Assembly (NCBI GenBank): GCA_965203315.1
Contig: OZ241857.1
Coordinates: forward strand, 1,664,001 to 1,728,000
Length of the DNA: 64,000 nt
From: Nitrosopumilus sp.
GTDB lineage: Archaea; Thermoproteota; Nitrososphaeria; Nitrososphaerales; Nitrosopumilaceae
Direction of reading: 5' to 3'
The stretch's first letter is position 1. Each line of letters begins with the position of its first letter. A model generated the notes under the pieces. It did no database searches, had not been told where the DNA came from, and saw only the letters and a program-made list of their open reading frames with translations. The position numbers and the translations under genes were made by a program. Below are positions 2,203 through 45,365 of the stretch, piece after piece.

Positions 2203-4545
2203 CTATGTGTTGTCATCTGTGTACACTATGTTGTGCATTGCGATCAGATCTGATCTAAATGGAGCTAGAGTTGCTGGGATATCGATCTCTATCTGATCCT
2301 TTAACGACAAACCCTGTGATCTCTTGTTGTTCCATACTGTTGAGTTGAACTCTGTTATCTGATTCGTTGTGTGTTCATCATACTTTGTACCTTTAGAGTC
2401 TGGTAGTGTCTGTACATGAATACTCTTATCTGAGTATAGCTTGTGCCAAAGATACTCTGTGATGAATGGAGTTATTGGCGCCAAGAGCTTTAAGATTGTT
2501 GCAAGAACTGTATGTAGTGTAAATATTGCAGCATCTCTGGACTCGTCATCAAAGCCAGTACCGTATGCACGTTTCTTTACCATCTCGATATAGTGTGCCG
2601 CAAACACATTCCAAGTAAACTCTCGTATCGCAATAGTTGGAACAAAAAAGTTGTATACGTCGTATCCTTTTCTGCACTCTATTACTAGCTTGTCGAGTTC
2701 TGACAGGATCCATCTATCTGTATCTTTGAGATTTGTACTAGATGCTGGTTCTAAACTAGAGATAAACCTTGCAATGTTCCACAGCTTGCTGAGAAACTTT
2801 TTGGTAGACTCTATCTTTTGTTCATTACACCTAAAGTCATAACCGTGATTGATCTCACTCGCGCTCCAGAACCTAAAGGTATCTGCTCCCATCTTTTGGA
2901 TTATCGGATATGGATCTATGGCATTTCCTTTACTCTTACTCATCTTTGTTCCCCGTTCATCTAGTCCATAACCCATAACCCATGCCTCTGACCACGGCTT
3001 TGTACCTGTGAGCTCTTTACATCGCAACAATGTATAGTACATCCATGTGCGCACGATATCTTTTGCTTGCGGTCTGATCGCAGACGGATATGTCTTTGTA
3101 AAAAAGTCATCATCTGTATGATATTTTGATATATACAATGGTGACACACTAGAGTCCATCCATGTATCAAACGTACGTTCTTCGCCCACAAAATCTGTAC
3201 AGGAACACTTTGTGCATTCTTTGATGGGACAGTCTTCCATCCATGGTCTATAGTATCGTCCGGACTCTGGAACATGTGGTGTATTACATCTCTGGCAGTA
3301 CCATACTGGTATCTCTGTACCATAGTATCTTCGTCTCGATATTGGCCAGTCTATGCTTATCGAGTCGAGCCAATTCATCATTATCTGTTTGTGCATACGA
3401 GGATGAAATGTTATTGTATCTACAATATCTCTCAACTCGTCAATTTGCTCTAACTGTCTCATATAGTACTCTTCCATTGGAATTATCTCTATCGGAGTCT
3501 TGCTACGCTCCGAGGTTGGAGTTCTATGTACGATGTCTGTGATATCTTGTACTAGACCTGCTGACGTCAGATCCTCGATTATCTTTGCTCTTGCTTGCTT
3601 TGGTCGCATTCCTGCGTATGTACCTGCAGCTGCAGTCATCTTTCCGTCGAGACCTATGGCTACTACTTCTTCTAGACGCAGCTCTCTAAACAACGCTACA
3701 TCGTGCTGATCACCATAGCTGCAAACCATCACTGCTCCTGAACCAAAGTTCATATCTGCTGAGTGATGAGTCTGTATCTTTACCGTCTGACCGGTTATAG
3801 GAACTAGTACATCTTTACCAACCAGATCTGTGTATCTTGCATCGTCTTTGTTTACCACTATAACTTTACAGGCACACAAGAGTTCTGGTCTTGTACTGGC
3901 GATTGTTATTGTACTGTTTGTATCTTTTATCGCAAATCTCATGTATACGAGTTTTGTAGCAATATCTTCGTAGACGATCTCTGCGTCTGCTATCGTTGTT
4001 CCTGATGCCCAATCATAGTTGTTTGGTCTGTTTGCAAGATATATCTGACCTCTATTCCACATCTCGATGAATGTACTCTGAGTTAATGTTCTATACTCTG
4101 TAGAGTCTGTTCTGTAATAGTTGTCAAAGTCGCCACTGATACCCAAACTCTTCATAATGTTTAACATCTCTGCCTCTAGATCATCTAATGCCACTCGACA
4201 TAGATCTAAAAACTCTGATCTATCGGTCTCTCGCATTCGTATCTTGTGCTTCTTTTCTGTATACAGTTCTACCGGCAGACCGTTTCGATCTATTCCTATA
4301 GGGAAGTAGACGTTCTTGCCTGACATTCTAGCTGTCCTTGCAATCATGTCTATCTGTGCATAATGTGCAGCTGCGCCAATATGCCATGGCCTTCCTGATG
4401 GATATGGTGGTGGTGTATCTATGGTATAGTTTGCAGCACTAGAGTCATTTGGTACAAACTTGTATATTCCAGATTTGTGCCATTCTTTTAGAATATCTCG
4501 TTCTAGCTCTGGATTCCATGTTTTTTGTGTTATCTTTGGTTCCAT
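2203..4545 (-). CDS. valS: Valine--tRNA ligase
   Basis: DTPPPYPSG..WHIG (HIGH-like), DWPISRRRYYG, DTWMDSS and KMSKS motifs. Confidence 0.93.
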   Translation of the reverse strand: MEPKITQKTWNPELERDILKEWHKSGIYKFVPNDSSAANYTIDTPPPYPSGRPWHIGAAAHYAQIDMIARTARMSGKNVYFPIGIDRNGLPVELYTEKKHKIRMRETDRSEFLDLCRVALDDLEAEMLNIMKSLGISGDFDNYYRTDSTEYRTLTQSTFIEMWNRGQIYLANRPNNYDWASGTTIADAEIVYEDIATKLVYMRFAIKDTNSTITIASTRPELLCACKVIVVNKDDARYTDLVGKDVLVPITGQTVKIQTHHSADMNFGSGAVMVCSYGDQHDVALFRELRLEEVVAIGLDGKMTAAAGTYAGMRPKQARAKIIEDLTSAGLVQDITDIVHRTPTSERSKTPIEIIPMEEYYMRQLEQIDELRDIVDTITFHPRMHKQIMMNWLDSISIDWPISRRRYYGTEIPVWYCQRCNTPHVPESGRYYRPWMEDCPIKECTKCSCTDFVGEERTFDTWMDSSVSPLYISKYHTDDDFFTKTYPSAIRPQAKDIVRTWMYYTLLRCKELTGTKPWSEAWVMGYGLDERGTKMSKSKGNAIDPYPIIQKMGADTFRFWSASEINHGYDFRCNEQKIESTKKFLSKLWNIARFISSLEPASSTNLKDTDRWILSELDKLVIECRKGYDVYNFFVPTIAIREFTWNVFAAHYIEMVKKRAYGTGFDDESRDAAIFTLHTVLATILKLLAPITPFITEYLWHKLYSDKSIHVQTLPDSKGTKYDEHTTNQITEFNSTVWNNKRSQGLSLKDQIEIDIPATLAPFRSDLIAMHNIVYTDDNT

Positions 4546-9021: not shown

Positions 9022-12000
9022 TTACTGAAATTTGGTCAGCTTGCCACTCTCTTCTGGTTGTGTAATGAACATGGCTCCGATCAACTTTAGTTCTGCTCGT
9101 TGTATGTCTTCTTTGATCTTGATCGGTTCTGTCTTTTCTTGTAGTCCGATAAACTCACTCATCTTTTTGATACTGGATACTAGGCTATCAATATCTTGCG
9201 TTCTGTCATAATCTAGTAGATACTCTCTGATATCGTCTTGCCATGCTCTAACATACTCTGATTTTATGATGTTTGTGACCTCTCGACCATCATCTTTTGT
9301 TATGTGGCCATTGATTGTAGCATCTATTATGATCTTTTTTATCTTTGAGACATCCTTGTCGTACTGTTGTCTCTTTTTGCCCACGCTCTCCTTTACATAC
9401 TGGATAATCTGATCATTCTTTCTATCTATTGCATCTCTTGCTTTTCTGTCGATATCTAGCAACATCTCGAATGACTCTTGATTATTGGGTCCATCCATTG
9501 GAAGATACGTTGGAGTATCTACATTACAAGATATCATGTTTATGGCTTCAAAGTCATCATCAGGTACATATGCCTTGTCTCTCGTACGATCATACACAAC
9601 AAAGTAGACTCGTCTCTCTGGTCTCTCTTGCAGATATCCGAGTATTGCATATCGACCTCTCTCTTGTTTACCACTACGCCTACCCATGGGTACCTCTTCC
9701 ATCTTGTCTATTCCTTTTTCCTTTATGTATCGACTAAGCTCGTTTATCGGTGACACTGCAGGCATTATGTCAGATTCGCGTTCCATGTCTTCGATTACCT
9801 TTGATGTGCCCTCTTTACCTGCAAGAATCTTGATCCTCTCTTTTATGGTCCCATTGAATTGTTTTGGTGTAGGCGTTGTTCCCAATACTTCAGAGTCTAG
9901 ACCCACCGTTTCGTTTACAGTTCCAATCTTCTCTATCAACTTTCCCATGATCTTTAAAATATTGTCTAGCTCTTTGTCTGGATAGCAGGCTCTTGTGTGT
10001 ATTGTATCGTATTCGCTGGTGAGTCTATCTACTCTACCTGTACGTTGAACTATTCTCATTGGATTCCACGGTAAATCATAGTTTATCACATAGTTACAAT
10101 CTTGGAGATTCTGTCCTTCAGACAAGACCTCTGTTGATACTAGGATATCGATCTCTTTTTCATCTAATATTTGATCCTCTAGTAGATTTGCTTTTGGAGC
10201 AAACATTCGTATGTATTTTTTTCTGACTTCTTGTTTTGTACTTCCAGTTATACATTCTATTTTATAATTCACAAATTTGTCTTGTAGTTCTTTTGTAATG
10301 TATTTCGCTGTAGTAACATATTCTGTAAATATCAGTACCTTTCTACTCTCTGTCTCTAGTGCTTTCTCTCGAAGTATTCTTTTTATGACCTCTTCGATCT
10401 TTGTATCTACTGTAATACGCTTTACACTATCTAGTAACTCTTCTAGTATTACGAGATCTTGATCAATATCTGACTTTAGTCTCTCGATATCATATGATTT
10501 GTGTATATTTTCCTTCTCTATCTTGTTTATCTCTTGTATAAAGAATTGGGTCTTTTCTTGATCGTCTGGATCAATATCAGTATCACCTTGTTCAATATCA
10601 TTCCATTTTGTTATTATCCTGTTAAAGTCTCGAACTCGTAGTATCTTTCCTTCGTCTAGTATATCTTTGACTTGCTTGTACAACATGACCTTGTTCTCTA
10701 TGCTTGTTTTACACGCAACTACACTACTCTCAAATCGTTTCAAAAGTAGTATCACTTGGAGATGAGCTACTATGCGATGTCTATTTTTTTCATCTTCTGA
10801 TAGATTTGTATTGTATCGTTCTATTCCGTATGGCGCCATCGTTAATTTTCCGATCTTGTCTAGAATCTCTTCAAAGACGTTTCCATATAGCTCACTCAAG
10901 CTGTACTCTATTGCAGCATAGCTGTGTTTTGGAAACTTTATCTCTCTGCCGTTTATTGTATCATCTTGATATACATCTTTGATGTATGATCTAGTTCGTC
11001 GTACCATTACTGTATCTAAGAGCTGTTGAATCTTTGTCAGTCCTTGAGTCAGACCCTCTTTGTTTGCAGCATCGCGCATGTGTTTGTACAGATCTGGAAT
11101 GCCAATCGTCTTGTAAAAGTAAGTGTCTTCTCCTCCAGTGATGATTGAGAGTTGATAGTATAGGTCCATGAGTGAGTTGTTTATTGGCGTAGCTGAGAGT
11201 AGTACTGCTTGTTTCTTCTTTCCTACTGACATTAATTTCATGAGATTCTTTCTACGGTTTGCCGTCTTTGATCTAAAGTTTTGACTTTCGTCTATTAGTA
11301 CTAGATCTATGTTTCTATACTTGACGAGATCATCTAGTATGATATCTCGTCCAAGTGACTCCATTGTCAGTTTCTCTCTGATATTGATATCTACCTCTTT
11401 TAGTTTCTCTTCCCACATGCTGTGTAATACTTGTGCTGGGGCTATCAGTAAGACCTTTTTGCCTTCTTTGAGTACCTTTTGTCGTAGTATCTCAATGCCG
11501 ATATTTGTTTTGCCAAGACCTGTCGCATCTGCAATTATTGTACCGCCATGATCTGCTACTATGAATAGTCCGGTTCTTACTGCATCTTGCTGAAACTTTG
11601 TAAGTGTCTTGCTAGAAATATCTCTCTCGTCTACCTTTGTTAATAGTGGTTTGAATCTCTCAAATAATAGTTTCATGTATACTTGATGTGGATTTGGCGG
11701 TACTCCAAACTTTGATTCTTTGAGTACACTGATGAGATCTTGTTTGGTATCTTTGGATTGATCCCACATTCGATCAAACCACTCTCTTGTAGTCTTGCTG
11801 ATTCCTGGTTGATACAGTCCTGCATTCAGTTCATAGTTTCCTACCATTCCTGCTGCTGTAAAGTTGCTTGAGCCAACAAAGACTGCATTGTCTCCTAGAA
11901 TGTAGCACTTGGAGTGATTGAACCTTCTCGTACCTTGTCTGACTTGGACGTTCTGCCTCTCTAAGAGTTTGATGAGGCTAGATATATCATTCATGGACTT

Positions 12001-12306
12001 TTGATCTAGATCGGTATCTTCTAGACTTGCCTTGAGAGATATCGATTCCTTGTATTGTTTAGCATATTCTTCAAATGTCTTCTCTGACGGTACGATCGCC
12101 TCCTTACCTAGTAATAGTCGTATCTCGAATGAATCTCTCTCTATTGCAGATTCAAGATTCTCTCGTAGCATTCCATATCCCTGTACGTTGAAATAACCTG
12201 TAGAGATGTCTAGATATCCAGCACTTGGGATCTCTGAGTTGAGAATCATTTGCATTGTATGTGGTTCTGTGTTGTCGATGATATCTCGCTTGATGCGTTC
12301 AGTCAT
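9022..12306 (-). CDS. PLD-family nuclease fused to SNF2-type SF2 helicase (defence-associated)
   Basis: HSKCYILGD..FVGSSNFT (HxK PLD motif); DATGLGKT (Walker A), DESQ (Walker B), SATPINN, SEGQNLQ, NYDLPWNP and QRTGRVDR. Start overlaps the upstream stop (ATGA). Confidence 0.9.
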   Translation of the reverse strand: MTERIKRDIIDNTEPHTMQMILNSEIPSAGYLDISTGYFNVQGYGMLRENLESAIERDSFEIRLLLGKEAIVPSEKTFEEYAKQYKESISLKASLEDTDLDQKSMNDISSLIKLLERQNVQVRQGTRRFNHSKCYILGDNAVFVGSSNFTAAGMVGNYELNAGLYQPGISKTTREWFDRMWDQSKDTKQDLISVLKESKFGVPPNPHQVYMKLLFERFKPLLTKVDERDISSKTLTKFQQDAVRTGLFIVADHGGTIIADATGLGKTNIGIEILRQKVLKEGKKVLLIAPAQVLHSMWEEKLKEVDINIREKLTMESLGRDIILDDLVKYRNIDLVLIDESQNFRSKTANRRKNLMKLMSVGKKKQAVLLSATPINNSLMDLYYQLSIITGGEDTYFYKTIGIPDLYKHMRDAANKEGLTQGLTKIQQLLDTVMVRRTRSYIKDVYQDDTINGREIKFPKHSYAAIEYSLSELYGNVFEEILDKIGKLTMAPYGIERYNTNLSEDEKNRHRIVAHLQVILLLKRFESSVVACKTSIENKVMLYKQVKDILDEGKILRVRDFNRIITKWNDIEQGDTDIDPDDQEKTQFFIQEINKIEKENIHKSYDIERLKSDIDQDLVILEELLDSVKRITVDTKIEEVIKRILREKALETESRKVLIFTEYVTTAKYITKELQDKFVNYKIECITGSTKQEVRKKYIRMFAPKANLLEDQILDEKEIDILVSTEVLSEGQNLQDCNYVINYDLPWNPMRIVQRTGRVDRLTSEYDTIHTRACYPDKELDNILKIMGKLIEKIGTVNETVGLDSEVLGTTPTPKQFNGTIKERIKILAGKEGTSKVIEDMERESDIMPAVSPINELSRYIKEKGIDKMEEVPMGRRSGKQERGRYAILGYLQERPERRVYFVVYDRTRDKAYVPDDDFEAINMISCNVDTPTYLPMDGPNNQESFEMLLDIDRKARDAIDRKNDQIIQYVKESVGKKRQQYDKDVSKIKKIIIDATINGHITKDDGREVTNIIKSEYVRAWQDDIREYLLDYDRTQDIDSLVSSIKKMSEFIGLQEKTEPIKIKEDIQRAELKLIGAMFITQPEESGKLTKFQ

Positions 12307-15300
12307 TGTGATATCGCCTCATAATATTCTAGTGCAAGTGCAGCCATCTCACCATAGAACTCTTTAATGTTCTTGTTATCCCAAACAATATCTTGCATCT
12401 CGTACAGCTGTTGGTTTCTCTTGAATAGTGGAAATGTATCGATTATTGTCTTGTACTCCTGTACAGTTAAACAGTACGAGTGTGCAACTAGAGCATCTAG
12501 TTCAGCAGTGACCTCGATCTTTTCTGCTGGTGTTAGTTTCTTGTTTTCTATGTGAAATATCTCAGCAAACTCCTCAAACTCTGGTGTGCCAACTAGAAGT
12601 TTTGTTGCAAGTTCAGCAATTTGTCTATCATGAACTGATTTTGGTAAAGGTAATGTTGATACAATGCTAGCTAGATTTGTCTGGTTTTTTGAACGAGATA
12701 TAAAATCAAATGTTAATGAATTCAACACTCCACACAAATATGAAATTTTTCTATGATATTCTGAATCTAAAATAATCTTTTCGTATTTTTTTAGAATAAC
12801 AGAACGTAAAGAATTTGAATGAAATGTATTCTGAGATATAATGGTAGATATGCATGTACGCATATTTGTGGGACTTGTAATGTTGCGAAAAATTAGTCTG
12901 TACGAGTTATGAATCTCTTTACACTTACCTAAAAATGCTTTTACTCCATTTAGTCTATCTAATCCTTTCTTTTTGTTTGATGCGAATTGTGGCCTAGCCC
13001 ATTCTTGTGTATATTGATGTATGTTTTTACCTTCAAATACTAACCAGCCTTTCCCATCTTCTGACAAGAGATCGGAGTCGTTTGTTTTATGAAATTCACT
13101 TACAAGCTTAACCTGCCATCCGTCTTTTAGATTTGATAATGATAATTTTGTTTGTGATAACTTTTGAAATATATTTGATTGAGTACCTATTATTTCTGGT
13201 ATTGTATATTCTTCTGGAGATGTTTCTATAATTGTTTTCTTAGATAACGTACCGAATTTCTCTTGTTCTCTAGAATGGTCTTCTAGTGAGTCAAGGTAAT
13301 GTATATAAAACCCAGCTGGGAACTGTCCTGTCCTGTCCTGTCCTGTCCTGTCCTGTCCTGTCCTGTCCTGTCCTGTCCTGTCCTGTCCTGTCCTGTCCTG
13401 TCCTGTCCTGTCCTGTCCTGTCCTGTCCTGTCCTGTCCTGTCCTGTCCTGTCCTGTCCTGTCCTGTCCTGTCCTGTCCTGTCCTGTCCTGTCCTGTCCTG
13501 TCCTGTCCTGTCCTGTCCTGTCCTGTCCTGTCCTGTCCTGTCCTGTCCTGTCCTGTCCTGTCCTGTCCTGTCCTGTCCTGTCCTGTCCTGTCCTGTCCTG
13601 TCCTGTCCTGTCCTGTCCTGTCCTGTCCTGTCCTGTCCTGTCCTGTCCTGTCCTGTCCTGTATAGTTAATAACAAAAATCGATAACTTGAATGAATATTG
13701 AATATCTTTTTTCTATTTTCAAATACATACATTGAGATGATATCTCTTTCAAGTATGTACTTACGAAGATTTATGCCACCTGGGATGGTAAGGAGTTGTG
13801 CCGGAATTAATATTGAAACGATACCATTTTCTGTAGTGAGATATAACGTCCGTTCTAGTATGAGTTTCCATAAATCATTATCCCCTGTTCCTTGTAGTGA
13901 AAATATGTTATAAAACAATGATTTTTCTCTTATTTGTTTTTCATACAAGTCCCACAATCTTTTAATATTATGTTCTTTGAGAAGATCTTTTTTTCTCTCT
14001 TTCTTTTTGACATTCGGTTTTAGATCCTTAAATGTGGGATCAATTGGAGTAAAAAACTCGTCATCGCTAGGCTTTACTTTCTCCCAGGGGGGGTTGCCAA
14101 CTATGCAATCAAAGCCTCGTCTAGAGTCAGTAAATGCGTCATTGAACTCGAGCTCCCAATGAAAGAATCTGTGGCGCTCTGCTAGATCATTTACAATTTT
14201 TTGGGCCTTTGCAATATCATTTGACTTGTCATATATGCCAAACCGATGAATAAACTCTGACTTTGCTTTCTTTGGCAGAATCTTTGGTTCAATCTTTGAT
14301 GCGGTTAATGCATCTAGGACATTTCTGTTTGGTTCTATTGATTTGATGTATTCGTTATACTTGTCCTCACTCTCATGAACTTGCTGTATTGTCACATCTG
14401 AACTTGAGACAATATCGTGCATCATCTTTGTCGACTCATTGCTAAGAGTATAGTCATCTAGAGACGTATTCTGCTTATCATCCAGATCATCAAGAAACAT
14501 TCCTATCGTAGAGTCGCCTACTTTGAGATGATGATCCATATACGTCAGCGGAACACCAATTGCAAAGGAATCTAACCACAATGACAGCTTGGCTAGATCT
14601 ACTGCCATTGGATTTATGTCGACTCCAAATATGCACCGTTTCATTATTTTACGTTTGAGCAGTACATCTGGAGTTAGCAGATTCTCATCAATTGTAACTC
14701 CTTTCTTGTTCTGCTCTTCTAGTACTCTCTTTCTATCCCGTTCTATCTCATCTAGTAGAGGATGATCTGGATGTTTTTCTAACGTATCTGTGACCCATGA
14801 TGTGATTCTGTTTAATGCTTCAACTAGAAAGTGACCACTGCCCATTGCTGGGTCTAGTACCTGAATATCTAACAGTCTGTCCATACATATCTGTAGATTT
14901 TTTGCAGTCTTGTTCTTCTTGTATTGTTTGATATCTTTGTCAATCAACTCTTCACGTTCTGCAAAGATTGGACCCAGTCCCTGTTTTACCAAAAATTTTA
15001 CAATCTTTTCTGGTGTGTAATAACTTGCAGATGTCTTGCGTGATACAATTCCACTCTTTGATGCAAGATAGAGATCATTCTTTTTGTACGAATAGGTGGA
15101 CTCTTGCTTTGTCTTGACCTGTCGAACTCCTTTACTGTCTTCAAGTAATGCAATATCCTCTTTTGCTTGTTTTGGCTCGTACTCTAATAGTCGCTCAAAT
15201 ACACTGCCCAAATGCCTGACCGTTAAACCGGTATAGTCTAATGTCTCGCCATCTCGTTCTAATAGTCCACGTAGTGCACTCGCAATGAATCGATTTTGAA

Positions 15301-16594
15301 TGTGTAGTTCATCTCCAGCCTTACCTATCTTGAATAGATCCCCGTTATACTGTGGCAGATTGTGTTTTGGACTGCCCTTTCTAACTGCTGTAAATAATTC
15401 TAGTAACGCATCCCAACAATCTGTACCTTTTGGATTCTGTTCATACGAATCCAAGTGATTACGAATAGATTGTAGTGATATGGGCTTGTACTTTTCGTCC
15501 CTTGTAGGCAAAAGATTTTTGGCTTCAGCATATGCCAAAAACCAAACTCTATACATGATTCTCAGTGCAGACTGTTTTGCAACCGCTAGCTCGTCTGATC
15601 TGAATGTCTTTTTACCGTCATGATCCAGTACTCCTTTAATGATATCCAAGAATAGTCCTTTTGGACTCATTATCTTCTCTGCAAGATTCTCCTCCAGATC
15701 TCTCGAATGCTCTTTACTCTCCTCAAAGAATAACTCGATGTCTCTCTTTCCATCTATCTCTTCAAAGGTATTAGCACCAAACATAATTATCAGATATCGA
15801 GTTACTGATTCACGTGCATCATCGAGATTTATCTCAAAATAGTTTGTACTGGTCGCTGATATCTTGCTAGAGTACAAACGCCACCTCTTACCATTTGTTA
15901 GTATAGACCACTCTTTCTCAGAGAGAGACGAGACAGCTGTATAACTTGGTGTCACCTCATTGTCAGTCTTTCTTATGTTAAAGTCCTCTTGATCTGTTAT
16001 GGTTATTGCCACTTTGTCGTATGACTCTTTTGTCATATCCCAACCAAGTGCTTCTAGTATCTCTCTAACACTTGATCCAATCTTTTGTTTAACTTTGGGT
16101 AAGATATCATCTACATCTTGTCGTGTATCTTGAAAGATTCTGCTACGAAGATAATGTGTTGCAAATAGTCCGCGATTATCAAAGTCTCCAGTAGTATTTG
16201 GGATTGCATTAATTGATTGCTTTATTCCTATCTTTAGATCAAACTCGTCTGCAGCATCTGTAATTCCGTTGGATTTTAGTACACTTGCAATTCGTTCATA
16301 CTCGAATCTATTTTCTAATCTAGTTATGTGACTCTCTCCAGAAGACTTGAGAAACAGTGCTCCGAGTTCTTGTACAATTACTATACAGTCCTCAAAGTTA
16401 ATCAGTGCTTTCTTTACTTCTGATATCTTTTTTGGTCCATTATTGATCAGTATGATTGGAATCTCTTTGGTAGGATTGTCGTGATTCAAACTATAACACA
16501 ACCAGTCTTCTGCCAGTGGAATCTCTCGTTTTGCTATCAGATCTACTCCTATGGACTCTAGTAGAATCTGTTGTTCTGTATTCATAACGATCAC
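12303..16594 (-). pseudogene. Type IIG/Eco57I-like N6-adenine DNA methyltransferase, frameshifted at an internal pentanucleotide repeat (likely phase-variable, OFF allele)
   Basis: SYYTP, DPAMGSGHFL, GVDINPMAV, FHWELEF and GNPPW in ORF 13283..16594. A second frame is open from the repeat (QFPAGFYIH...SPEEYTIPE...) through ORF 12303..13067, the target-recognition-like C-terminus. Confidence 0.9.
13323..13661. repeat. Perfect microsatellite (CTGTC)67 + CTGT; (GACAG)n on the coding strand
   Basis: 339 bp uninterrupted 5-bp period inside the methyltransferase gene. Confidence 0.98.
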
Positions 16595-22591: not shown

Positions 22592-23229
22592 ACCCTTCTT
22601 CCTCGTTTGCCACCCTTCTTTCTAGTTGTATCGTGAGGAATTGGTGTAACATCATCGATTCTCCCAATCTTGAATCCTCCTCTGGCAAGAGCTCGAATTG
22701 CCGCCTGTGCTCCTGGACCTGGAACTCTAGATCCTACTCCACCCACAGCTCTAACTCTGATATGAAATCCAACAAAGCCTTTTGTTCTAGCAGATTCGAT
22801 AACTTTGTTTGCTGCTTTCATTGCAGCAAAAGGTGACGATTCATATCTATCTGCTGTAACGTGGTTTCCTCCAGAACTTATTGAGACAGTCTCGCCTCCG
22901 GTTAGATCAGTCATGTGTATTATCGTATTGTTATAACTACTAAAGATGTGCGCTATTCCCCACTTTTCTTGAGTCTCTTTTTTAGGCTCTTCCTTCTCTT
23001 CTGGTTTAGCCTCAGCCTTTGGTTCTACAGGTACCTCTCTAGTAACTGACGCATCACTCTCTATAGACACATTCTCTTCTGGTTTAGCCTCAACCTTTGG
23101 TTCTACAGGTACCTCTCTAGTAACTGACGCATCACCCTCTATAGACACACTCTCTTCTGGTTTAGCCTCAACCTTTGGTTCTACAGGTACTGTAACAACC
23201 TCTGATACTACATTGTCTGTATCTGACAC
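22588..23229 (-). CDS. rps11: 30S ribosomal protein S11 with acidic repeat-containing N-terminal extension
   Basis: [25 protein letters not shown] and [22 protein letters not shown] at 23229 is the likely start. Confidence 0.95.
22996..23190. repeat. 78-bp coding tandem repeat, ~2.5 copies, in rps11
   Basis: Encodes [12 protein letters not shown](S/N)VSIE(G/S)DASVTREV. Confidence 0.9.
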
Positions 23230-32820: not shown

Positions 32821-33348
32821 GTGAACAGAATAAAGAGTCTCTCAGATAAGGTACTTGAGGAACACAAGTCCAAGTTTGGTGCCAATTTTACTGACAACAA
32901 AAAAGCGTTGAATGAGATCACTACTATACGCTCTAAAAGTTTAAAGAATCAAATCGCAGGTTATATTACTAGATTTACCAAGAAAGAGATTCGTGACATA
33001 AAGTCTAAACAAGCTCGATTTATCGCAGAGTCTAAAAAATCGATCAAGCCAGAACGTCCATCTGAGCCTAAATTTCAATCCGACGTTGGTGATATCATCA
33101 AACCCGCCGAGTCTACTACCAAACCAACCGAGACCACAGAACCCACAGCTACCAAACCCGCCGAGTCTACTACCAAACCAACCGAGACCACAGAACCCAC
33201 AGCTACCAAACCAACCGAGACCACAGAACCCACAGCTACCAAACCAACCGAGACCACAGAACCCACAGCTACCAAACCCGCCGAGTCTACTACCAAACCA
33301 ACCGAGACCACAGAACATTCACAAACAGCTTCTTCTGCACATACTTAG
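32821..33348 (+). CDS. rps17e: 30S ribosomal protein S17e with repetitive C-terminal tail
   Basis: NF.DNKK.L..I..IRSK.LKNQIAGYIT; GTG at 32821. Confidence 0.9.
   Translation: MNRIKSLSDKVLEEHKSKFGANFTDNKKALNEITTIRSKSLKNQIAGYITRFTKKEIRDIKSKQARFIAESKKSIKPERPSEPKFQSDVGDIIKPAESTTKPTETTEPTATKPAESTTKPTETTEPTATKPTETTEPTATKPTETTEPTATKPAESTTKPTETTEHSQTASSAHT
33100..33316. repeat. Composite coding tandem repeat (21-bp and 33-bp units) in rps17e
   Basis: Units encode KPAESTT and KPTETTEPTAT with identical DNA between copies. Confidence 0.92.
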
Positions 33349-45256: not shown

Positions 45257-45365
45257 TATTTTTGTGCCACGTGTGTGATTTGGACTATTACATTTATACG
45301 GAGTTTTAATATTTTTGTGCCACGTGTGTGATTTGGACTATTACATTTATACGGAGTTTTAATAT
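45257..45365. repeat. Perfect 53-bp tandem duplication upstream of the IS110 transposase
   Basis: ATTTTTGTGCCACGTGTGTGATTTGGACTATTACATTTATACGGAGTTTTAAT x2. Confidence 0.95.

Follow-up and report, generated by a model that had tools for sequence, protein, structure and literature searches.

The window analysed here is the whole 64,000-nt stretch of contig OZ241857.1 (positions 1,664,001 to 1,728,000, forward strand) from the genome of a Nitrosopumilus sp. (assembly GCA_965203315.1; labelled G000 below). Its subject is a restriction-modification (R-M) methyltransferase (MTase) gene on the minus strand, which is interrupted by a long pentanucleotide tract and is followed directly by a nuclease-helicase gene. 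The features of the locus are listed below, each with the evidence for it.

13323..13661, minus strand: perfect pentanucleotide tract (GACAG)67.8, translated (QDRTG)n in every frame (Tandem Repeats Finder, sequence, translations)
13662..16594, minus strand: 5' part of the MTase gene, 977 codons from the GTG at 16594, with an ATG at 16585 (Pfam, PADLOC)
13283..13322, minus strand: out-of-frame tail SSQLGFIYITLTH and TAG stop (13283-13285) in the 67-unit allele (translations)
12303..13322, minus strand: 3' part of the MTase gene, 339 codons, with the TGA stop at 12303-12305 (PADLOC, same-frame orthologues, protein P0122)
9022..12306, minus strand: partner gene for a phospholipase D-like (PLD, HKD) nuclease-SNF2 helicase, 1094 aa (Pfam, PADLOC)

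The tract and the methyltransferase gene

The tract is a perfect tandem array of period 5, with 67.8 copies, 100% matches, no indels and a score of 678 in Tandem Repeats Finder (TRF), and its unit on the coding strand, GACAG, was also checked directly in the letters. A genome-wide repeat scan showed that it is the longest perfect simple repeat of the 2.47-Mb, seven-contig genome. An earlier reading made from the letters of the window (the sequence-only reading) had counted 67 perfect units, a number that the TRF result bears out. With these units the minus-strand open reading frame (ORF) spans 13283..16594 and encodes 1103 aa from the GTG, with the C terminus ...RFLLLTI(QDRTG)22QDSSQLGFIYITLTH. 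A second minus-strand frame is free of stops from 13712 to 12303; it includes QFPAGFYIHYL and reads ...QFPAGFYIHYLDSL...YYEAISQ up to its stop. Translation confirmed both the stop at 13283 and the second frame open to 12303, as the earlier reading had described them. The distance between the I codon before the tract and the F codon after it is 338 nt, and 338+5k is divisible by 3 at k = -1, +2, +5 and +8, so that the 5' and 3' parts fall into one frame only after a tract change of -1, +2, +5, +8 and so on units. The earlier statement that removing one unit or adding two restores the frame is right, and an allele of 66 units would run to 1428 codons, counted from the GTG. Over 1316 codons, the two gene halves are free of further stops and frameshifts. 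The locus thus places a non-triplet (5-nt) repeat unit inside a methyltransferase ORF, as in simple-repeat phase-variable R-M methyltransferases. It is also true, as had been pointed out, that the tract has no stop in any frame, all three minus-strand frames giving the same peptide. This property was dismissed as evidence of a switch, since it is expected for about three quarters of random 5-mers.

The 5' part matches the Pfam families Eco57I (7.3e-22), MmeI_Mtase (1.7e-9) and N6_Mtase (8.9e-7). It comprises a degenerate PD-(D/E)xK-like N-terminal domain, a helical region and a gamma-class N6-adenine MTase core (DPAMGSGHF, GNPPW), and extends to the first strand of the last MTase hairpin. The 3' part consists of the last MTase beta-strand (FPAGFYIH) and a target-recognition domain, in which the TaqI_C specificity domain is matched at 1.6e-4, weaker than the Pfam cut-off. 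A single PADLOC profile of 1250 positions, PDLC03613 (REase_MTase_IIG), spans both parts, with the 5' part matching profile positions 114-900 (2.6e-75), the 3' part matching positions 926-1243 (4.7e-16) and a 26-position profile gap at the tract. The gene is present in 14 of 151 same-genus genomes, G000 included (E<=1e-30), and nine same-genus orthologues are single ORFs of 1176-1391 aa, with both parts in one frame and 27-36 nt between them. The shared profile and these single-ORF orthologues establish that one R-M methyltransferase gene is split by the tract, as the sequence-only reading had it. Alignment of the orthologues showed a variable loop of 8-11 residues at the site (for example ...RFALLSV-KNSPGPDE-FSAGFYLH...), and G000 has I(QDRTG)nQ in place of this short loop. 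One orthologue (G017, L002:4380-4460) lacks 1 nt of the Y codon of HSSY, shortly (a few codons) ahead of the loop, so that its 3' part continues in another frame, which is either a real frameshift or an assembly error; this orthologue also bears a 13-mer ×41 at the 5' end of the gene.

The fold was modelled for residues 480-1329 of another orthologue (G153) from a 57-sequence alignment, with a mean predicted local distance difference test score (pLDDT) of 90.5 and a predicted template modelling score (pTM) of 0.88. In the model the loop is a 6-residue turn between strands 494-501 (RFALLSV) and 508-515 (FSAGFYLH), located at the tip of a beta-hairpin just ahead of the last strand of the MTase fold. 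The best structural matches are CamA, PglX/BrxX of bacteriophage exclusion (BREX) systems, M.BseCI, M.TaqI, LlaGI and BpuSI, which are gamma-class N6-adenine MTases with a C-terminal recognition domain. These relatives came from the fold search; when the PDB was searched by sequence, neither the G153 orthologue nor a profile of 9 sequences gave a hit. The earlier placement of the tract between the catalytic and recognition parts needs correcting, the site being a hairpin tip rather than a free interdomain linker. Because the second hairpin strand, FPAGFYIH, belongs to the MTase fold, the catalytic part is also incomplete in the out-of-frame form. A gamma-class N6-adenine MTase core and a C-terminal target-recognition domain are joined in one chain in in-frame alleles only. 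Judged from the model, an insert at the hairpin tip is sterically plausible and may be tolerated.

Alleles, partner gene and repeats at related genes

In a protein collection, the 90% cluster of the window's product has three members, namely P0002 (1100 aa, the window's own product), P0123, a 254-aa ORF inside the 3' part of the gene, and P0122, a single protein of 1440 aa from a different contig of 15,720 nt. Comparison of P0122 with the window showed an N-terminal part identical at 974 of 974 residues, then (QDRTG)25, and then a C-terminal part identical at 339 of 339 residues. Between these flanks P0122 has 126 residues (378 nt) and the window 338 nt, a difference of +40 nt or +8 units, which is in frame. 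The unit number thus differs between in-frame and out-of-frame alleles of an otherwise identical gene, both derived from assemblies, and by its sequence P0122 is the predicted ON allele and the window the predicted OFF allele. The proposal that copy number sets ON or OFF accordingly has gained an in-frame allele with eight more units in another public assembly.

A second tract occurs at the same loop in a relative. P0003, which is 82% identical, has a cluster mate, P0124 (1051 aa, from a contig of 27,694 nt), that ends in ...LLLTLQNNVG(SDQIR)10SDPCWILST, with RYRFLLLTLQNNVG before the repeat. The tail of P0124 is the -1 frame of IPAGFYLH, which marks it as an OFF allele. If its DNA is 5-periodic, the unit would be TCAGA, as deduced from the peptide; (GATCA)6 was found in none of the 151 genus genomes, among which the P0124 DNA is not included. 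Two different non-triplet repeats at one loop in two species suggest that a frameshift-prone tract is maintained there, and argue against an accident of one lineage. In a distant clade of the MTase family (P0027, P0068, P0070, P0076, P0087, P0088, P0091, P0103), the proteins are cut at 1214-1272 aa, at runs coding for poly-P or poly-G in the recognition domain (for example ...SLSPPPPPPPSNS), whereas P0036 reads PPPPP in frame and reaches 1314 aa. These truncations may be homopolymer switches or long-read homopolymer errors.

The partner gene matches PLDc_2 (1.2e-15), SNF2-rel_dom (9.4e-14) and Helicase_C (7.8e-23) in Pfam and 'HKD+Snf2' (1.8e-55) in PADLOC, and its ATG overlaps the MTase stop as ATGA. 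A PLD-SNF2 gene lies directly 3' of the MTase gene in 10 of 10 same-genus loci, which have no other G000 neighbour in common. Among 80 listed homologue loci, the adjacency is present in all four named archaeal and in 12 of 76 bacterial loci. The N-terminal domain of the bacterial homologues keeps a PD...ExK...TNGxxWRLY nuclease motif, of which all 11 Nitrosopumilaceae/Nitrososphaera rows in alignment A3 lack PD and ExK. The archaeal chain thus lacks the active PD-(D/E)xK nuclease that a type IIG enzyme carries in the same polypeptide. No recognition domain was detected in the PLD-SNF2 partner. From these sequence features the MTase is read as a putative subunit for methylation and recognition, derived from a type IIG enzyme, that would leave cleavage to its PLD-SNF2 partner, like Mod and Res of type III. 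The neighbours of the pair are genes for a tRNA synthetase, PTPS, adenylosuccinate lyase and RtcB. Elsewhere in the window, tandem repeats are located at 22994-23190 (78-nt ×2.5), 33099-33316 (54-nt ×3.8, with a 33-nt sub-period) and 45257-45365 (53-nt ×2.1).

The host is an ammonia-oxidising archaeon. The archaeal nature of the gene, already asserted from the letters, is borne out by an archaeal amoA in the genome (1.2e-116), by the presence of TFB and MCM, and by the nearest named relatives of the MTase gene, which are Nitrosopumilaceae, Nitrosopumilus and Nitrososphaera metagenome-assembled genomes (MAGs).

Short-unit repeats recur at the related genes. In 180 kb around 10 orthologues (TRF period <=16, at least 3 copies, at least 90% match), five of the seven short-unit repeats lie no more than 200 nt upstream of the MTase start, a zone that makes up 1.33% of the sequence (binomial 8.6e-9). 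The five all differ in unit, being a 13-mer ×41 (G017), a 10-mer ×18.8 (G170), a 13-mer ×4.5 (G169), a 10-mer ×3.1 (G153) and (TG)19 (G145). These differences indicate separate origins, though the related genomes are not independent. In G028 an 11-mer ×5.9 is positioned ~150 nt upstream of the MTase.

A similar association was observed across G000 itself. With contigs C2 and C3 left out (period <=20, at least 4 copies, at least 90% match), 6 of 13 short-unit repeats lie in, or no more than 400 nt upstream of, 33 ORFs with MTase domains, which cover 2.87% of the genome (binomial 8e-7, or 1.9e-4 with three paralogues merged). These three paralogues carry perfect TATCCAT tracts of 22.4 copies (L106:3173-3329; C5:239172-239328), 17.4 copies (L111:3864-3985; C1:243863-243984) and 10.4 copies (L110:3164-3236; C1:723163-723235), with near-identical flanks, each tract ending 32 nt before the ATG of a type ISP gene. 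The encoded paralogues, of 1553, 961 (truncated) and 1550 aa, have the domains Mrr_cat_2, ResIII, ISP_coupler, N6_Mtase and Type_ISP_C. The different copy numbers at near-identical paralogous loci show that tract length drifts in this genome. No match to the MutS_V or NucS_C domains was found in G000, which is 99.98% complete; slipped intermediates would thus stay uncorrected by any known mismatch-repair pathway.

A candidate contingency switch and its alternatives

The locus is supported as a repeat-driven ON/OFF switch in an archaeal R-M methyltransferase. With a probability of about 0.8, the tract acts as a hypermutable contingency switch in the subunit that provides specificity and methylation to an ATP-dependent, R-M-like defence module of two genes. 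Slipped-strand mispairing in replication would gain or lose GACAG units, and a change of -1, +2, +5 or +8 units would give one protein of ~1.43-1.44 kaa (ON), in which (QDRTG)n would form a long hydrophilic loop at the tip of the last MTase beta-hairpin, followed by the target-recognition domain. At the other two thirds of lengths, translation would end 11-14 codons past the tract (OFF), leaving a product without the last strand of the catalytic fold and without the entire recognition domain. Since no recognition domain was detected in the partner and its start overlaps the MTase stop, the OFF state should silence restriction together with methylation, which would avoid self-restriction, as with Mod and Res of type III. 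Within this proposal we infer the rate and reversibility of switching, the activity of the ON protein, its coupling to the partner and an effect on gene regulation. A phasevarion, meaning a regulon governed by the state of methylation, and switching inside a single population, both put forward in the sequence-only reading, are hypothetical.

Several observations weigh against the switch. Only two alleles are known, and an in-frame length has a 1-in-3 chance by itself. Both unit counts come from consensus assemblies of one or two samples, and a long-read consensus may miscount. Five sequencing runs from three studies each contain at least 98% of the sampled window words; in the form of k-mer (Logan) contigs, with window 13645-14644 compared for X1, X2, X3 and X5, the contigs of these four runs match that interval without differences and break off 12-17 nt into the tract, and 15 gaps in two of the records fall at the repeat end. 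A 39-nt pattern of flank plus repeat, searched exactly, had no match in Joint Genome Institute (JGI) metagenome contigs. (GACAG)6 occurs in one of the 151 genus genomes, G000 itself, and a repeat at the loop site is rare, with two sequence clusters among the 120 best homologues listed. The ON protein would have to be active with 110-126 extra residues in one hairpin of its catalytic fold, and switching at so long a tract may be rapid enough to make the population simply a fixed mixture.

One alternative is that the tract length is fixed and the difference between the assemblies is an artefact, a real repeat having been given a wrong unit count in one or both records, and the gene being permanently whole, with a long loop, or permanently broken. 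A perfect microsatellite of 339-378 nt is indeed hard to count in noisy long reads, short-read k-mer contigs are unable to cross it, and several homologues from long-read MAGs are cut at homopolymer-coded sites by what are possibly basecalling errors. However, a 40-nt difference is large for a consensus error beside 1313 identical flanking residues, a related species has a different out-of-frame 5-periodic tract at the same loop, and within one assembly the three paralogous loci carry the heptamer tract at different copy numbers. A fixed length is improbable. Another alternative is a decaying gene that was inactivated first, its microsatellite then expanding in dead sequence without selected function. 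The window allele is out of frame, the G017 orthologue has its unrelated 1-nt frameshift a few codons upstream of the loop, and P0003 is truncated elsewhere, members of the family often being found broken. Against decay stand the 1316 codons free of any further stop or frameshift, the in-frame allele with identical flanks, the intact partner gene with its ATGA overlap, and the recurrence of non-triplet repeats at this gene family well beyond chance, which together make decay quite unlikely.

The repeat could instead be chiefly a feature of the protein, a hydrophilic loop of variable length acting as a spacer or decoy, with out-of-frame alleles as a tolerated by-product rather than a selected OFF state. 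The stop-free hydrophilic peptide is the same in all frames, and inserts are sterically easy at the tip of a hairpin. However, a 5-nt unit leaves two thirds of the lengths out of frame, whereas a function of the protein would favour a 3n unit, and the peptide that the related species has there, SDQIR, is unrelated. In the bacterial type III mod ORFs covered by the excerpted survey, expanded repeats almost never have 3n units (PMC5909438). A chiefly protein-level role is the least probable of these alternatives to the contingency switch.

Described systems and the wider pattern

The papers cited here are drawn on in excerpt. The proposed contingency switch recalls the type III mod genes (modA, modB, GCACA[n]), which likewise have a non-triplet repeat in the ORF of an MTase and target-recognition subunit, in-frame and out-of-frame alleles arising from unit-number differences between strains, and a motor-nuclease partner that depends on the subunit (PMC5909438). 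However, the enzyme here is of the gamma-class, Eco57I/PglX-like family rather than a beta-class Mod, its repeat lies not near the 5' end but two thirds of the way along the gene, in a catalytic-fold hairpin, and its host is a free-living archaeal nitrifier rather than a host-adapted bacterium. The unit number, 67-75, also exceeds the 4-48 given for bacterial type III pentanucleotide tracts (PMC5909438). Beside the bacterial systems, the domain of life and the enzyme family and module are new, and the site is unusual.

The Streptomyces coelicolor Pgl system is related through PglX/BrxX, which is among the best structural matches of the G153 model (8q56, 8c45, 9ewz). Pgl switching at 1e-2 to 1e-4 is ascribed to length change of a G-tract in pglX (PMC4365076). 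Its organism is also free-living, but it is a bacterium, and the tract is a homopolymer instead of a pentanucleotide repeat; Pgl is a six-gene BREX type 2 system with PglZ, whereas the module here has two genes, one of them for the PLD-SNF2 nuclease-helicase. Among described architectures, the Type-2 BREX-related (BR) system comes nearest; it is composed of a DUF499 ATPase, an N6-MTase, an HKD-Swi2/Snf2 helicase and DUF3780, and is reported in archaea too (PMC12839542). Both systems combine an N6-adenine methyltransferase with a Swi2/Snf2 helicase that carries an HKD nuclease at its N terminus (PMC12839542), and this pairing was found at the locus. However, DUF499 and a conserved gene of DUF3780 size are absent from beside the pair, synteny being limited to the MTase and helicase genes at 10 of 10 loci; DUF3780 was not searched genome-wide, and the only DUF499 match of the genome is ~155 kb away (C1:1835783-1837447). 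For DISARM, the only PADLOC matches are DrmMI- and DrmD-like, to the two genes themselves, and no neighbour has the size or Pfam domains of DrmA (DUF1998 helicase) or DrmB, though no search was aimed at either.

With type IIG enzymes (Eco57I, MmeI, BpuSI) the protein shares the Pfam families Eco57I and MmeI_Mtase and the PADLOC profile REase_MTase_IIG over nearly its full length. It differs in that the Nitrosopumilaceae clade is without PD and ExK and is always paired with a separate PLD-SNF2 gene. Campylobacter cj0031, a phase-variable type IIG gene, reportedly uses a poly-G tract.

Among the titles and abstracts listed by full-text searches on archaeal phase variation, none concerns a repeat-switched archaeal methyltransferase. 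Together with a 2025 phase-variation review that, in the excerpt used, treats archaeal phylogenies as a future extension (PMC11868660), this agrees with the earlier remark that no well-characterised archaeal case exists. In excerpt, a survey of archaeal R-M systems cites phase-variable systems only as bacterial surveys (PMC10609329), and a 2026 review gives no archaeal example in the 12 passages covered, of 21 that mention archaea (PMC13076061). A 2010 study treats, statistically, only short homopolymers in 18 archaeal genomes and uses 'restriction' 0 times (PMC2831843); 'archaea' occurs 0 times in the main text of the bacterial type III survey (PMC5909438).

The window's own genome contains 33 distinct MTase-domain ORFs (PF02384, PF01555, PF07669), an unusually large set for a 2.47-Mb archaeon, and further repeats were observed near starts of such genes. 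A 13-mer ×16.3 (L104:5780-5991; C1:665779-665990) lies 68 nt before the TTG of an 837-aa PF01555 methyltransferase, a 16-mer ×4.3 (L105:7974-8042; C1:641973-642041) lies 68 nt before the TTG of a 1376-aa type ISP gene, and a G11 run (C5:308223-308233) lies 9 nt before the TTG of an 869-aa PF01555 paralogue. A 13-mer ×16.2, CATACATTACAAC (L107:4232-4441; C1:1264231-1264440), is positioned between a TFB gene and an IS630-like DDE transposase; it is a counter-example away from R-M genes and was counted in the enrichment. Contigs C2 (7.4 kb) and C3 (29 kb) have many long TG/CA arrays (<=55 units), unlike the remaining genome; they may be foreign or mis-binned, and all counts exclude them. At C1:1011365-1016338 there is a CRISPR-like array whose repeat measures 37 nt.

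Nine loci were compared at the start, namely L002:942-1494, L012:1454-1500, L013:1195-1500, L015 (minus strand) 4431-4523 and the G000 loci; L003 and L016, with unclear starts, were excluded, the candidate GTG of L003 having no preceding stop. In all nine an in-frame stop abuts the main TTG or ATG start on its 5' side (TAATTG or TAGATG), that frame stays open through the tract, and an upstream ORF started by ATG crosses the tract. In two of the nine (G170 and the ×17 heptamer locus) the upstream ORF is in phase and ends at the abutting stop. One idea is that repeat-bearing upstream ORFs abutting the main start form a termination-reinitiation switch. The motif CT[CA]TAATTG was rejected as a widespread module, since only 1 of its 60 hits lies ahead of an ORF >210 aa. 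A G23/N10/C36 run directly before the TAGTTG start of the L024 orthologue (L024:5912-5981), in a short-read MAG, resembles a scaffold gap where the sequence failed to assemble and was kept out of the repeat counts.

G000, with 38.6% G+C, contains 36 poly-G/C tracts that are 10-17 nt long (for example C1:136717, C1:1793541, C5:81629, C5:267558 and C1:318570). About 22 of them lie 6-12 nt before the start codon, mostly TTG, of ORFs that encode 246-3085 aa and have a signal-like N terminus (LSKRHLISVLVLVAVVP...); here the tract follows 4-7 nt after the end of a TTTATAA box. Another poly-G context, TTTTAAC-ttaac-Gn-tcgatagttttcacgc, has ~7 copies and is without a long ORF.

More tentatively, the tract in the window may be one locus of a genome-wide contingency system without mismatch repair, comprising at least six R-M and ~20 giant secreted or surface-protein genes and, besides the classical frameshift within an ORF, two archaea-specific read-outs, a view that we hold to be doubtful on balance. 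In one read-out, the length of a poly-G tract between the TATA box and a TTG 7-8 nt downstream would decide whether the leaderless mRNA begins at the start codon. In the other, repeat-bearing upstream ORFs would, in one third of phases, stop next to the main TTG or ATG start and act by termination-reinitiation. If confirmed, this wider pattern of many R-M and ~20 surface-protein genes with tracts by promoter or start signals would be the more novel.

Phase variation of R-M systems through repeats is regarded as typical of host-adapted bacteria, and the locus described here points to the same logic in an abundant environmental lineage of nitrifiers. If the contingency switch is true, short-read MAGs would systematically lose or mis-call such loci. 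Archaea, and free-living microbes, would then also practise bet-hedging between defence against viruses and its costs, and the methylomes of ammonia-oxidising archaea may vary within a strain.

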